A DNA stretch of 16,822 bases from a virus (taxonomy: Duplodnaviria; Heunggongvirae; Uroviricota; Caudoviricetes), in the IMG/VR virus record IMGVR_UViG_2585427743_000008. One strand, given 5' to 3'. Below are positions 9,526-16,134 of this stretch, one piece after another. Each line of letters opens with the position of its first letter. Within the stretch, counting starts at the first letter, position 1. The notes beneath the pieces are model-generated. The model did no database searches. It was not told the DNA's origin and saw only the letters and a program-made list of their open reading frames with translations. The position numbers and the translations under genes were made by a program.

Positions 9526-9876
9526 ATGAAAAAATATATATTAGGTATTATTCTAACAATGGGATCATTCTCCGCACTTGCTGGCGGTGCATGGCAACCT
9601 TCCGTTGGGCCTGGGGAGTGCATCTCGTTCCAATCGGGATTAGGCGAAATTGGTGGATACAGATGGGTTTCTTCTAACGGGTGCAATGAGGTAATTAATC
9701 GAGGGTACGCACTCGGTGTGGCTTTAGAACGACGTGTGAATTATGCAAATGGAGATTCTGTATCATCGGCTGGAGTTATTAGCCCAAGTCGTGATTATGT
9801 GATGAAAGGCTCAAAGTTCTCTAATGGATCCCCAAAAGTATCTACAGGTGGTAGTAGCCCTTATTGGTATAAATAA
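9526..9876 (+). CDS. small Sec-secreted protein, dispersin (Aap)/CexE-like candidate substrate; predicted mature N-terminus Gly
   Basis: 116-aa ORF with a classic Sec signal (MKKYILGIILTMGSFSALA, AxA cleavage site) leaving GGAWQPS... as the mature N-terminus; two Cys (ECISF, NGCNEV); RBS AAAAGG upstream; strong terminator directly downstream. Size and architecture match the dispersin/CexE family as I recall it; not verified by alignment. Confidence 0.7.
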   Translation: MKKYILGIILTMGSFSALAGGAWQPSVGPGECISFQSGLGEIGGYRWVSSNGCNEVINRGYALGVALERRVNYANGDSVSSAGVISPSRDYVMKGSKFSNGSPKVSTGGSSPYWYK

Positions 9877-9882
9877 AATATA

Positions 9883-9920
9883 AAACAACCGCCTTGTTAA
9901 AGGCGGTTGTTTATTGATTC
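9883..9920 (+). terminator. rho-independent terminator after the small secreted-protein gene
   Basis: 13-bp perfect stem AAACAACCGCCTT / AAGGCGGTTGTTT (9883-9895, 9900-9912) with a 4-nt loop, followed by a T-rich stretch. Confidence 0.65.
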
Positions 9921-10158
9921 TATAACCCCATGCACATAAGCGCTTTATTTCAAGTGTTTCAAATATGTTAAGTGCATGAAAAAAGTTGCTGTATATAAAT
10001 TTCACTTGTAAGGGTTGCTTTTTTAGTTGTTAATCCTATATGGTGATTTAACATTTTTATTTCTTGAATACTTTTTATATTTTAGGGAAATGGTTTAGTT
10101 GTGTAAAACGAAATCTATAGATAGCAAAGGGTGTTTTGAGTATAGGTTTATATAAATC

Positions 10159-11298
10159 ATGTGTAATTTTTTTTTATTAGTTTTTAAAGAATCATTGCAA
10201 AATATCCAAGAGAACAAAAGCATGATGTATTTGTACTCATTTGTATTGATTCTTTCGTTTACAGGGGTAATTATAACTGACTCATTAATAAATAGCGTGG
10301 CAAAAACTGCTCAGTCAGAACTAAGAAGCGAGGGGGAGTCAACAATTACCATTAGCTTTCATATGTCTAAATCGCGAGACCTGATAGCTAACATTTTGTC
10401 CCAAATGCAGATTAAAGACGTTTTTTTCAGTAAAAATGTTTTTTTTCAGGTAGGGGGGAATCCTTTTGCCAGTCAGCTAAAAAAAATAACAGGAATTGAA
10501 AGAAAAGATGTGTTGTTTAATGATATTCATTCAGACTTCTGGGTAAAAGGGAAAAATTCCGTCGTTATACGAAGTGGTGATAGTGATTTATCAAAGAAAG
10601 CTTATATTTATATTGATGGTCTTCCATTTAAAGTGAACGGTGTTACAAGTAAAAAGAAAACAATTTTTCTGGATAGTTTAGGTTTAAGCTCTCTACAAAA
10701 AGAAGGTGAAATTTTTATTCCATTAGAAACAGCGACCAGATTATCACTTAACAACGAAATAGATAGTGCAAGACTTATTCTTAAAAAAGAAGTTGATGAT
10801 GTTAATATAATGAAACTCAATGAGTTATTAAAAGCAAATGGTATTGATAACTATAATATTATTAGTTTTATCGATGCAAAAAAAGCAGTTGATAATGTAT
10901 TAAATAGATTTTCATTGTTGACAAATATTATGTATTTTTTTTTGACAGTTACATCTGTCATTACAGCAAAATCTATGAGTAAAAAGATGTTCCAATATCG
11001 GAGTACAGAATTTGCATTAAAAATACTCAATGGTATTAATGGAAAAATCGTTTGCATCGTTATTTTTGTCGAAAGTCTCATTGTCGCATTAATTTCAATA
11101 TCTGTATCGTTATTGATGTCATTTGTTATTTTAGTTATAGTATCAAGTGCAATTTCAGTTGACCTTGCAATGCGATATAATGCTTTAATGACTTCTGTCT
11201 GTGTAATAGCGTTCTTTTTATGTGTATATAATACTAAGCTAAGTTATTCTCTTTTTGCAAAAGAGTTGTCAACTTTAATTAAAGAAAGGTTTTCATGA
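10159..11298 (+). CDS. ABC-transporter permease, FtsX/MacB/LolC-like (AatP-like)
   Basis: One N-terminal TM (MMYLYSFVLILSFTGVIIT), a ~220-aa hydrophilic domain, then three C-terminal TM helices: the FtsX-fold topology. Start uncertain (10159 or the MM at 10222); stop overlaps the next gene by 4 nt. Confidence 0.75.
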   Translation: MCNFFLLVFKESLQNIQENKSMMYLYSFVLILSFTGVIITDSLINSVAKTAQSELRSEGESTITISFHMSKSRDLIANILSQMQIKDVFFSKNVFFQVGGNPFASQLKKITGIERKDVLFNDIHSDFWVKGKNSVVIRSGDSDLSKKAYIYIDGLPFKVNGVTSKKKTIFLDSLGLSSLQKEGEIFIPLETATRLSLNNEIDSARLILKKEVDDVNIMKLNELLKANGIDNYNIISFIDAKKAVDNVLNRFSLLTNIMYFFLTVTSVITAKSMSKKMFQYRSTEFALKILNGINGKIVCIVIFVESLIVALISISVSLLMSFVILVIVSSAISVDLAMRYNALMTSVCVIAFFLCVYNTKLSYSLFAKELSTLIKERFS

Positions 11299-13849: not shown

Positions 13850-14721
13850 TATTTTCATACATTAACATAAATCAGTGTTATTAGATAAGCATAATTATTT
13901 TGCATATAACTAAAAATGTAATATTAAGTAAATAAATGATTAGTAAAAATATGTCGTTTGCAATATATAATTTGAGGGGGAATGTCTAATAACAATGAAA
14001 AATTCATTTTTTCTAGTACCTCATGCCTGGGGAGTAGATATTCCCGCAATGTTGATGGCTGCGTCAGAAAGAAAAATTTCAGTAATGTTTCAATCCGGCA
14101 GTGGAGTATGTCTGGAACAGCGTTCATCGTCGTTTCGGAGAAATATTACATGTACGTAATGATGGTATTAAATCTTTTGTCCGTTCCGTTCGACAGAAGG
14201 ACTGGGGATGTTATCTGCTGAATCAAGATTACGGTCCGGTATGCAGTGAATTTACGGACTTTTTCGCGACATATAAAGCAACATTACCGATTACTGGACG
14301 GCTTAGCAAACTCAGTGGGAGCAGATAATACTACTTGTTCCGGCTTATGACGGAACAAGTCATCGGTTGACCATTCATATCAGTTCTCCAGTTTCTATAC
14401 GACAGGAGATTGATGCTTAAAATTGAAAGTTTTGCTCGTCCACATTCTGAGCGGTATACACGTGCTAAAAACGAGTAAGATAGGATAAAATGATCCTTAC
14501 TAAGCCCGTTACTTTTGGATAATGAAATCAGGTATCAAAAAGGTGCCATCGCCAATTTTCGATGGAGTAGGTACATATTCCACCCTAACGTGAATACCTA
14601 TTATTTCGCCCCATCGGCGTCCCCTTTTTTTGATGTCAGTATGATGCTCACTTCCTCATTCCGACGGTTTAGCAGCCTGAAGAACTGGCTGATTTATTCA
14701 TGAATCATTGGCAGTTGTCTG

Positions 14722-14871
14722 TCAGACGGCATAAGGTAAGAGATCCACCGCAGTTGTGAAACGAACCTTGATACCTGCATGGACTGTCTTATAGTCTATT
14801 GCTATTGCCAGATAGTTTTTCCCTCTTCCCTGATGGCCCAGTAAAACAATGTTTTCATCACGTTGTATCAT
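14722..14871 (-). pseudogene. IS21-family IstB-like ATPase internal fragment (remnant)
   Basis: Found by manual minus-strand translation: [49 protein letters not shown], resembling the IstB Walker A region (NxLLxGPxGxGKTHLAxAL...RVxFTTAxxL) but with a degenerate P-loop. A further IstB-like stretch (IILTSKKGDADW) lies downstream in another frame (~14600-14640). Lies 18 bp from the Lnt-like gene stop. Confidence 0.5.
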
Positions 14872-14889
14872 GGATGAATGATAAATATT

Positions 14890-16134
14890 TCATATATCAA
14901 TAACAAAAAATGGTTTTTTGAGCGACGTTGCGAATACGTCATCATCGATCTTACCATTGTTTCTAATAAGTACAGTCCCTCCATGATTTTGGATGTTTAT
15001 ATATGCAGATGAATTTGGCGCAACAGAAAACCACCCAAGGATACTTCCATTTTTTATGATTCTATTATACATATCATTTTTATCTAGCCGCTTGTAATTT
15101 GATTGAACTATAACCAGTTCATTGTCTGACTTATCTATTTCAGGAAACAAAGCATCATAGCAAATATATGTTTTTATATTTATACCATTATGGATTATAT
15201 TTTTATTAATAATGTCTTTGTGTATTGTCAGATATTCAGACGTATTATCACCTTCATCCGAAAAATTCCATTTTTGCTCAACAAAAGGAATGAGTGATTT
15301 TTTTTGATTAATAAATGTTTTATCTTTATAATAATAAACCGACACGACATTGTTTATGTTATCAAAACCAAAGAAATTAAATATAAAAGCATGCCGCTGA
15401 TGCATATTGCTTATTTTTATATCGGATATTATTTTTTGTGTTATTTTCTTGCTGAGCTGACTCTTGAATCCATAAATTGTATTTTCTGAGAAAGCCACTA
15501 TATCAATATCATTATTTTCTTTTACAAAGTTTAATAGATCAGAAAGAAAATCTGTAGTATTCCCTCCCAATTGATAATAAAGCCCAACCTGCACTACCCC
15601 TATTTTAATTTTCTGCTGGTAAGTGTTTTGTGTAGATAAATATGATTTTTGAATCAAATACATAAAGCAAAGCGCGAAGAAATAAACAAACATCAACCTA
15701 ATATTTAGAAAAGGAAGCATTGACACAAATAAATACAATAAGAATAAATTAATGATTGGATATGGAATACTGTAAAGAAAATTATTAAATTTATAATACA
15801 ATAATATCAGTGGATTCAATGGCACAAACTTTGCATAACCCGCTGCTAACGTAAAAATTAATGAATGAATGATGACGCTTACTAAATTATAAGTAATGCT
15901 CATCCGATAGGAAAAGAAGTAAACTATATTATATGTAAGCGTGAAGAAACATATAAGTAGTGCTGTATTATCAAAAAAATAAAGAAATTCAGGACCAAAT
16001 AAAAAAAGGATGAAGCAGCATGAATATGCTAATACCCACAATAGATATGTGCTCACTCCATTTTTTTTAGAATAAAAATGCAAAAAGATGAAAAACAAAC
16101 TTAAAAAAACATCAATAGAATCATTAACACTCAT
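14890..16134 (-). CDS. Lnt-like membrane N-acyltransferase (CN-hydrolase/nitrilase superfamily; AatD-like)
   Basis: N-terminal ~165 aa very hydrophobic (about 5-6 TM helices), then a soluble domain with motifs matching the Lnt catalytic triad context: IVAFSENTIYGF (Glu ~217), KKSLIPFVE (Lys ~278/279; Lnt has K-x-x-LVPFGE) and YICYDALFPE (Cys ~325; Lnt has CYE). 414 aa; no C-terminal TM after the hydrolase domain. Confidence 0.75.
   Translation of the reverse strand: MSVNDSIDVFLSLFFIFLHFYSKKNGVSTYLLWVLAYSCCFILFLFGPEFLYFFDNTALLICFFTLTYNIVYFFSYRMSITYNLVSVIIHSLIFTLAAGYAKFVPLNPLILLYYKFNNFLYSIPYPIINLFLLYLFVSMLPFLNIRLMFVYFFALCFMYLIQKSYLSTQNTYQQKIKIGVVQVGLYYQLGGNTTDFLSDLLNFVKENNDIDIVAFSENTIYGFKSQLSKKITQKIISDIKISNMHQRHAFIFNFFGFDNINNVVSVYYYKDKTFINQKKSLIPFVEQKWNFSDEGDNTSEYLTIHKDIINKNIIHNGINIKTYICYDALFPEIDKSDNELVIVQSNYKRLDKNDMYNRIIKNGSILGWFSVAPNSSAYINIQNHGGTVLIRNNGKIDDDVFATSLKKPFFVIDI

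Follow-up and report, generated by a model that had tools for sequence, protein, structure and literature searches.

The AT-rich region analysed here is very probably the CexE-gamma/Aat locus of lineage-5 (L5; CS5+CS6) enterotoxigenic E. coli (ETEC), which belongs to the Aat “composite” secretion systems. Within the window, by which we mean the entire 16,822-nt stretch of DNA, positions 9400-16300 are 100% identical in nucleotide sequence to eight complete ETEC plasmids, including E2265 plasmid p1 (CP023347) and pAvM_E1779_19 (LR883008), while a ninth plasmid record, pTW10722_36, matches this 6.9-kb island at 99.7% and five further plasmids match it at 97.6%. As the identical 6.9 kb recurs across complete ETEC plasmids, the island is no chance pattern. 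The original prediction, made from the sequence alone, proposed six open reading frames with the gene content of the Aat and Cex systems; all six were found at the predicted coordinates and strands, and all six assignments held. Similarity to the proteins of ETEC H10407 is evident throughout, with full-length identities of 57.5% for CexE, 70% for AatP, 66% for AatA, 76% for AatB, 77% for AatC and 75% for AatD. The description of the locus as an AT-rich island is likewise accurate, as the block is about 30% GC and its flanks about 49% (0.31 over 9372-13981 and 0.28 in aatD, with cexE alone at 0.44, against 0.49 over 1-9371 on the left). The suggestion that this could be a divergent or unannotated family member needs correcting as regards novelty, since the locus is already known. 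On E2265 p1, Joffré et al. (2019, Sci Rep 9:108) reported a “variant of cexE” together with the Aat translocator (as an “aatPABCD operon”), covering both this exact sequence and its bile induction; von Mentzer et al. (2021) listed cexE upstream of aatPABC on pAvM_E1779_19; and the variant name is also in print, the cexE product being equal to CexE-gamma of Rivas 2020 (Fig. S1/S2).

The substrate gene, cexE (9526-9876, forward strand), encodes a 116-aa secreted coat protein of the gamma variant, identified by its matches to H10407 CexE and to PDB entry 9hho, “Protein CexE” (E 2.5e-31). CexE-gamma is only 57.5% identical over its full length to H10407 CexE, the experimentally tested alpha variant, and its similarity to the enteroaggregative E. 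coli (EAEC) dispersin is barely detectable (2jvu, E 0.34). A signal peptide is predicted at residues 1-19, ending in SALA, so that the mature protein would begin with Gly20-Gly21, in agreement with the prediction of a small Sec-exported protein with an exposed N-terminal glycine. The junction between MKKYILGIILTMGSFSALA and GGAWQ aligns with that between SAIA and GGGNS in H10407 CexE, where the cleavage site was proven by N-terminal sequencing (Icke 2021), indicating that the signal-peptide/Gly-Gly junction is conserved; glycine occupies +1 in all CexE variants of Rivas 2020 (Fig. S2). The predicted site is of the signal peptidase I type and carries no lipobox cysteine, as composite-system substrates require. 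Just beyond the gene lies an intrinsic-terminator-like hairpin (9883-9912, forward strand), detected by a terminator scan, with a 13-bp stem including six GC pairs, which fits the finding of Joffré et al. (2019) that cexE was induced far more strongly than aatP.

The next four genes lie on one strand with junction overlaps of 4, 44 and 8 nt, which bears out the proposed translationally coupled operon; aatPABC forms one operonic unit in every example described by Icke 2021. The first, aatP (cexP; 10159-11298, forward strand), encodes a 379-aa inner-membrane permease that, by homology, would be of the MacB/LolC type, the MacB_PCD model giving a weak match (E 0.071). Its hydropathy profile has a single hydrophobic segment in the N-terminal part and a cluster of them in the C-terminal part, on either side of a domain of about 235 residues, which fits a first transmembrane helix, a large periplasmic domain and three C-terminal helices. 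A start at 10159 retains a conserved N-terminal KE(A/S)LxNIxEN motif that is lost from the RefSeq start at 10222. The 401-aa product of aatA (cexA; 11295-12500, forward strand) is a TolC-like outer-membrane channel, with an N-terminal signal-like hydrophobic segment, a match to PF02321 OEP in two stretches (E 2.5e-13) and a weak match to the TolC model TIGR01844. The periplasmic adaptor AatB (cexB; 12457-13230, forward strand; 257 aa) gives weak adaptor-family matches (CzcB/NccB 1.9e-4, RND_mfp 2.3e-3, HlyD 0.081), and the 208-aa AatC (cexC; 13223-13849, forward strand) is an ABC ATPase of the LolD/FtsE/MacB clade (PF00005, E 1.2e-29; LolD 5.4e-44, FtsE 7.1e-48, MacB 1.8e-37). As CexE, AatP, AatB and AatD are not recognised above thresholds by the Pfam and NCBIfam models, their assignments rest on homology to the H10407 and EAEC proteins and on structure prediction.

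The sixth gene, aatD (cexD; 14890-16134, reverse strand), encodes a 414-aa Lnt-like N-acyltransferase. Residues E217, K278, E286 and C325 occupy positions identical to those of H10407 AatD and are in register with Lnt E267, K335, E343 and C387, so the Glu/Lys/Cys triad and the additional glutamate are intact and alignment reveals none of the triad substitutions that the original prediction had considered. In a comparison of 24 AatD family members, E217, K278 and C325 never vary, and at least 90% of the sequences retain E286. An AF2 model (pLDDT 85, pTM 0.86) is predicted to adopt an Lnt-like fold, the top 23 matches among PDB folds all being Lnt (best E 2.4e-10, TM 0.64), and the profile TIGR00546 lnt is matched at E 6.8e-6. 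Approximately 100 bp upstream of the gene (16135-16235, reverse strand) are conserved with the region upstream of the stand-alone aatD of H10407 before the sequence diverges into IS-derived DNA; this segment may contain the aatD promoter.

All six components have been characterised in H10407, where they are encoded on plasmid p948 (Pilonieta 2007; Rivas 2020; Icke 2021), and the mechanism has been demonstrated in that strain and in EAEC 042; we apply it to the window by homology. PreCexE would cross the inner membrane via Sec and be cleaved by signal peptidase I after Ala19, exposing Gly20-Gly21. AatD, a membrane Lnt-like C-N hydrolase using Glu217, Lys278 and Cys325 with Glu286 in a stabilising role, would then move an acyl chain, probably derived from phospholipid, onto the amino group of Gly20, and AatP-AatC, a MacB/LolCDE-like ABC transporter, would pull the acylated CexE out of the inner membrane. 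In H10407, CexE is no longer secreted when any single aat gene is deleted, Gly20 is acylated by AatD alone, mutation of the triad inactivates the enzyme, and one N-terminal glycine suffices (Icke 2021); surface display of CexE requires cexC (Rivas 2020). AatD also functions in EAEC, where ETEC AatD cross-complements (Belmont-Monroy 2020). AatD-dependent acylation at Gly+1 and Aat-dependent surface display are established for CexE-alpha and Aap; for CexE-gamma, the published data concern expression. By analogy with these homologs, AatD would be expected to acylate the N-terminal glycine of CexE-gamma, and the Aat machinery to display the product at the surface.

Comparison with the characterised systems shows both conserved and rearranged features. 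H10407 p948 carries the same six components: cexE directly precedes aatPABC and points the same way, its CexE has Gly-Gly after the signal peptidase I site, and aatD is a stand-alone, IS-separated gene whose product shares its length of 414 aa and its catalytic-residue numbering with the AatD of the window. The position of aatD differs: in H10407 the gene precedes cexE by approximately 4 kb and occupies the same strand, whereas here it is inverted and follows aatC at a distance of 1,040 bp. In EAEC 042 and 55989, Aap (dispersin) and AatPABCD (Nishi 2003; Belmont-Monroy 2020) comprise the same five-protein machinery with a Gly-acylated type of substrate and a conserved AatD triad, but identities to the window proteins are lower (AatP 36%, AatA 26%, AatB 30%, AatC 50%, AatD 34%), aatPABCD is one contiguous operon, aap lies elsewhere, and the regulator is AggR. 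The arrangement had been predicted to depart from aatPABCD, and it does; as a novelty the point fails, since an adjacent substrate gene and a detached aatD (Icke 2021; Rivas 2020) are normal for ETEC, and the organisations catalogued by Icke 2021 include a layout with cexE beside aatPABC and aatD at a distance of over 1 kb. More distantly, AatD shares its predicted fold and catalytic residues with Lnt, AatC groups with the LolD, MacB and FtsE ATPases, and AatA and AatB resemble the channel and adaptor of MacAB-TolC. Unlike the lipoproteins handled by Lnt and LolCDE, the Aat substrate has no lipobox or cysteine, and the acyl acceptor is the N-terminal glycine generated by signal peptidase I.

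The island was predicted to sit between a prophage remnant and IS elements, and its surroundings are indeed a DLP12-like lambdoid prophage remnant and IS66-family elements on the left and an IS3 fragment on the right. The left boundary (8673-9371, reverse strand), placed by sequence and match ends, consists of an IS66-family end beginning GTAAGCG, which we take to be the IS66-family terminal repeat, and fused transposase fragments forming a chimeric 222-aa ORF with IS3 and IS66 domains. E2265 p1 and pAvM_E1779_19 carry the same locus, sharing its gene order, inverted aatD and spacer, and differ from the contig only in this left-hand context: on the plasmids the IS66-type end is preceded by IS3/HEPN/IS66/IS100 sequence, and in the contig by DLP12-like prophage DNA. 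It is a serious, if tentative, possibility that the prophage adjacency is an artefact of draft assembly and that the island truly resides where all complete genomes have it, on the virulence plasmid of L5. In the collections searched, none of the complete E. coli genomes and plasmids spans the 8672/8673 junction; in complete L5 genomes the prophage runs on beyond 8672 with ordinary lambdoid genes while the island is on a plasmid; and in the draft assembly, GCA_000713015.1, a second contig has the identical six genes with a different left flank. Against a misassembly, the break coincides exactly with the first base of the IS66-type repeat, and the chromosomal match stops at 8672 and the plasmid match begins at 8671, an overlap of about 2 bases that resembles a real transposition or IS-mediated junction rather than a repeat-induced mis-join; furthermore, the IS scar in the window (8947-8989) differs from that of the other copy, making the two distinguishable. 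An IS66-family element may have moved the plasmid cexE-aat island into a chromosomal DLP12-like prophage, producing a second copy in addition to that on contig JORE01000041.1, although we consider this rather doubtful. If true, it would give a chromosomal foothold to a virulence module otherwise reported in ETEC on plasmids only.

The approximately 1-kb (1,040 bp) spacer between aatC and aatD (13850-14889) contains the predicted IS21 remnant, an IstB fragment (14722-14874, reverse strand; PF01695 on a 49-aa product) annotated in RefSeq as a partial “ATP-binding protein” and about 80% identical in nucleotide sequence to IS100 istB. It also contains, as the original prediction did not mention, a degraded lpxM/msbB-type lipid A acyltransferase pseudogene (13982-14478, forward strand), which RefSeq labels [quoted passage not shown]; PF03279 matches a 75-aa fragment of it, and its nucleotide identity to plasmid lpxM genes is about 72%. 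This pseudogene is probably a passenger of the spacer that stands outside the secretion system. Upstream of cexE, a promoter-proximal region of about 110 bp (9417-9525, forward strand) bearing the T-rich motif TTTTTTTTTATCT is conserved with H10407, and similarity then ends at an IS scar. Because the scar replaces the sequence beyond this point, only one of the two Rns/CfaD sites of H10407 cexE can fit within what is retained; the motif may mark the location of a regulator site. With IS66, IS3 and IS21 fragments bounding and interrupting the island, a pseudogene in its spacer, the distal cexE upstream sequence replaced, and aatD inverted and severed from the operon, the locus could be read as a decaying, non-functional remnant, but this is very unlikely. 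None of the six ORFs is broken or shortened compared with H10407, the AatD catalytic residues are intact, independent L5 isolates share the sequence at 100% identity, and a detached aatD is the ETEC norm, including in the functional H10407 system. Published expression data largely refute decay: in L5 strains with this exact sequence, bile or glycocholate strongly induces cexE (RNA and protein) and aatP (RNA) together with csvR, as found for cexE by RNA-seq, iTRAQ and qRT-PCR and for aatP by qRT-PCR in 12 strains, with cexE the most abundant induced transcript and CexE seen at the protein level (Joffré 2019).

These data associate an intact CexE-gamma/Aat locus with CsvR and induction by bile or glycocholate, whereas H10407 uses CfaD/Rns. 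Direct control by CsvR has been proposed in the literature, no regulator gene lies within the window, and control of this locus by the AraC/XylS family (Rns/CfaD, AggR, RegA, CsvR) is putative. Finally, it is extremely improbable that the operon encodes a generic exporter of the MacAB-TolC type, for efflux or for bacteriocins, beside an unrelated small protein and acyltransferase: the best curated model for the ATPase is the bacteriocin-export ABC family TIGR03608 (E 3e-56), with MacB, FtsE and LolD also good, and no curated model names the permease or adaptor, but the four products are 66-77% identical to their H10407 Aat counterparts and 26-50% identical to EAEC proteins named by NCBI as dispersin-export subunits, their neighbour is a bona fide CexE, and over 800 genomes contain this gene set together (Icke 2021).

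In conclusion, the practical point concerns the annotation of the gamma-variant genes in RefSeq. RefSeq/PGAP applies the label “hypothetical protein” to this variant's cexE, aatP, aatB and aatD, and it is in this sense alone that the locus is unannotated, as had been suggested; at least one record also shortens aatP by 21 codons. Given these labels, the truncation and the lack of a curated model, a reader of the sequence alone could reasonably take the locus to be undescribed. CS5+CS6 (L5) ETEC are a globally common diarrhoea-causing lineage of E. coli, and CexE is a candidate both as a virulence factor of ETEC and as a vaccine antigen. Among known secretion systems, Aat alone attaches a lipid to its substrate at an N-terminal glycine before presenting that substrate at the cell surface.

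All six open reading frames of the original prediction were found where it had placed them: a candidate small gene on the plus strand, cexE (9526-9876, 116 aa); a plus-strand block of four beginning with aatP (10159-11298) and continuing through aatA (11295-12500), aatB (12457-13230) and aatC (13223-13849), with overlaps of 4, 44 and 8 nt at its stop/start junctions; and aatD on the minus strand (14890-16134, 414 aa). The AT-rich nature of the block is also borne out, with a GC content of 0.31 in 9372-13981 and 0.28 in minus-strand aatD versus 0.49 in 1-9371; the value for cexE is 0.44. 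The products were compared with those of H10407 plasmid p948, the ETEC reference in which the mechanism was worked out, and of EAEC 55989, in which aatP, aatA, aatB, aatC and aatD are named by NCBI. Alignments to the H10407 proteins are essentially full length for all six, with identities of 57.5% (CexE), 70% (AatP), 66% (AatA), 76% (AatB), 77% (AatC) and 75% (AatD), while identities to EAEC 55989 are 36% for AatP, 26% for AatA, 30% for AatB, 50% for AatC and 34% for AatD. These identities (57.5-77% to H10407), a structure match for CexE and the catalytic residues of AatD support the proposed assignment to the Aat/Cex systems.

Searches of Pfam and NCBIfam returned no above-threshold family for CexE, AatP, AatB or AatD. 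CexE matches the PDB entry 9hho (“Protein CexE”) with an E value of 2.5e-31 and the dispersin structure 2jvu with an E value of only 0.34. Its signal peptide ends in SALA followed by GGAWQ, aligning with SAIA followed by GGGNS in H10407 CexE, for which N-terminal sequencing has confirmed cleavage after Ala19 and the acylation site has been shown to be Gly20 (Icke et al. 2021). This alignment of the predicted cleavage point with the H10407 signal peptidase site is consistent with the N-terminal-glycine substrate that had been proposed. AatA carries an outer-membrane efflux protein domain (E 2.5e-13), and AatC scores best within the LolD/FtsE/MacB group of ABC ATPases. AatP is seen only weakly by curated family models; its domain of ~235 residues lies between a single hydrophobic segment at the N-terminus and a cluster of them at the C-terminus, the MacB/LolC pattern. 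In the RefSeq annotation of pTW10722_147 the aatP start corresponds to position 10222, while the gene caller and other records use 10159; the 21 residues dropped by RefSeq include a KE(A/S)LxNIxEN motif conserved in the AatP of both H10407 and EAEC.

The original prediction of an Lnt-like acyltransferase fared well. In H10407 AatD the catalytic positions are E217, K278, E286 and C325, and alanine substitutions there abolish acylation (Icke et al. 2021). All four residues are present in AatD of the window with numbering identical to H10407. A 24-member family alignment (E. coli, Citrobacter, Yersinia and metagenomes) shows no variation at E217, K278 or C325, and E286 is retained in at least 90% of its sequences. 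A phmmer search of AatD against PDB sequences gave no match, and the sole hit of a three-sequence AatD profile against the PDB, dCMP hydroxymethylase (E 0.024), was judged spurious. Alignments of AatD profiles to the single K-12 Lnt sequence by hhalign were statistically weak (probabilities of 3% and 0.9%) but still in register, placing E217, K278, E286 and C325 on Lnt E267, K335, E343 and C387. Because these probabilities are low, the comparison with Lnt was based on structure prediction and fold search. The AlphaFold model built from the 24-member alignment is confident (pLDDT 85.3, pTM 0.86), and the 23 solved structures that it matches best are all Lnt, with matches spanning the membrane and nitrilase-like domains; the top match is 6nwr_A (E 2.4e-10, TM 0.64), and soluble enzymes of the nitrilase superfamily follow after Lnt. 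The predicted fold thus retrieves Lnt, and neither of the two findings named beforehand as telling against the prediction, a lack of Aat/Cex similarity or substitutions at the Glu/Lys/Cys positions, was made. An AatD relative with 81% identity is present in JGI/ENA data, and a CexE from Providencia alcalifaciens is nearly identical to that of the window, sharing its signal peptide and N-terminus and differing by a handful of substitutions (Rivas 2020, Fig. S1/S2). These two relatives suggest recent intergeneric exchange of the AT-rich module.

By analogy with H10407 and EAEC, where the steps have been established (Icke 2021; Belmont-Monroy 2020), Sec export and cleavage by signal peptidase I would expose Gly20, which AatD would N-acylate without a need for AatPABC. 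AatP and AatC would then pull the lipoprotein out of the inner membrane, and AatB and AatA would finish the conduit to the surface. What has been shown for the exact sequence of the window is only that bile or glycocholate induces cexE, at both the RNA and the protein level, together with aatP (RNA) and csvR (Joffré 2019); the papers found report neither acylation nor Aat-dependence of its CexE.

The layout, which had been thought unusual, is ordinary for ETEC. H10407 likewise has a cexE-aatPABC arrangement and a stand-alone aatD set apart by IS elements. Rearrangements of aat have been illustrated previously (Belmont-Monroy 2020), and a survey of 826 genomes sorted them into six organizations, with aatD more than 1 kb from aatPABC in 25% and none between 39 bp and 1 kb (Icke 2021). 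The gaps in the window are 1,040 bp between aatC and aatD and 282 bp between cexE and aatP, and the locus therefore belongs to the catalogued >1 kb class, right at its lower edge. The island comprises three transcription units, and a terminator with a 13-bp stem follows cexE (9883-9912). Conservation with H10407 extends over ~110 bp upstream of cexE, where it stops at an IS scar, and over ~100 bp upstream of aatD. A scan for sigma-70 promoters found 34 sites versus 37.7 expected from shuffled sequence; as such sites are no commoner than in shuffled sequence, no promoter is named here. Of the two Rns/CfaD sites of H10407, one immediately before the -35 hexamer and the other farther upstream (Rivas 2020), the window can, as far as the sequence indicates, have kept only the proximal site.

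The spacer between aatC and aatD (13850-14889) contains the predicted IS21 remnant, an IstB fragment of that family. Directly downstream of aatC it also contains an lpxM/msbB-type late (lipid A) acyltransferase pseudogene on the plus strand (13982-14478), ~72% identical in nucleotide sequence to the lpxM carried on pO157-type plasmids. A role for this fragment as a second acyltransferase of the system was rejected, and it is treated as a passenger, since it is frameshifted, N-terminally truncated and absent from the aat loci of H10407 and E24377A. An Rfam search of the window gave no matches.

The window is the entire draft contig JORE01000030.1 of assembly GCA_000713015.1, and its left part consists of ISCro1 (1-2656) and a DLP12-like lambdoid prophage segment (2657-8672) with rha, lysis genes, an ompC-like porin, quuD, rusA, ybcO, ninE and ybcN. 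The ompC/nmpC-like porin (5205-6347, plus strand, 360-380 aa) is intact and is flanked by the lysis cassette and the quuD antiterminator, which is ordinary for this prophage family. The part of the segment tested (8350-8672) shows 100% identity to chromosomes of lineage 5 (CS5+CS6) ETEC strains whose plasmids carry the island, and the window matches the plasmids of this lineage from 8671 onward. The switch from chromosome to plasmid falls exactly at GTAAGCG, which we take to be the terminal repeat of IS66-family elements, so that the prophage segment is bracketed by ISCro1 on one side and an IS66-type end on the other. A fused minus-strand ORF of 222 aa follows (8703-9371), combining an IS3-family OrfA-like N-terminus with an IS66 transposase C-terminus; in the reference plasmids the annotation splits this stretch into two pseudogene fragments, and a substitution cluster and a deletion of ~10 bp at 8947-8989 set the window apart from those plasmids. 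The junction at 8672/8673 may be a real, IS66-mediated one, as favored by the exact coincidence of the break with an IS end, or it may be an artefact of assembly, as favored by its absence from every complete E. coli genome and PLSDB plasmid searched. The same assembly holds a second contig, JORE01000041.1, with an identical set of the six genes and a different left flank carrying IS66, an ImpA_N/T6SS-like gene, a NERD-UvrD helicase and an HlyC-like gene. All 30 differences between its positions 8544-16690 and 8667-16822 of the window lie in the IS scar (8666-8989), and the two contigs may represent either two genuine copies or a quirk of the assembly.

An apparent second copy of the island in the finished TW10722 genome, on the 36-kb “plasmid” pTW10722_36 (NZ_CP035845.1; island and plasmid flanks at 15216-21840, 99.7% identity), was set aside as it carries frameshifts in aatP, aatA, aatB and aatD. 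Frameshifts are also found in its vapBC and IS3 genes, and the record has the appearance of an unpolished, duplicated part of pTW10722_147 and not of a real replicon.

In conclusion, the original interpretation is supported, but the locus is not new, as the exact sequence has already been published. Eight complete plasmids from human ETEC isolates match positions 9400-16300 at 100% identity and five more do so at 97.6%; plasmids account for all but one of the 104 places matched. Among the identical plasmids are p1 of strain E2265 (CP023347) and pAvM_E1779_19 (LR883008), in which aatPABC is preceded by cexE (von Mentzer et al. 2021). The cexE of E2265 was described as a variant with only 72% similarity to its H10407 counterpart and as the most abundant bile- or glycocholate-induced transcript, with CexE protein levels raised and aatP co-induced in 12 CS5+CS6 lineage 5 strains (Joffré et al. 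2019). CexE of the window is the CexE-gamma of Rivas et al. 2020, agreeing in every column compared of the alignment spreadsheet; two mismatches in the PDF version are text-extraction errors. The Aat system, the CexE-gamma variant and the exact sequence are thus all in the literature and GenBank, and the finding is therefore already known. What remains is an annotation gap in RefSeq, where four of the six genes of the variant (cexE, aatP, aatB and aatD) are labeled “hypothetical protein” although the cexE of H10407 is named.
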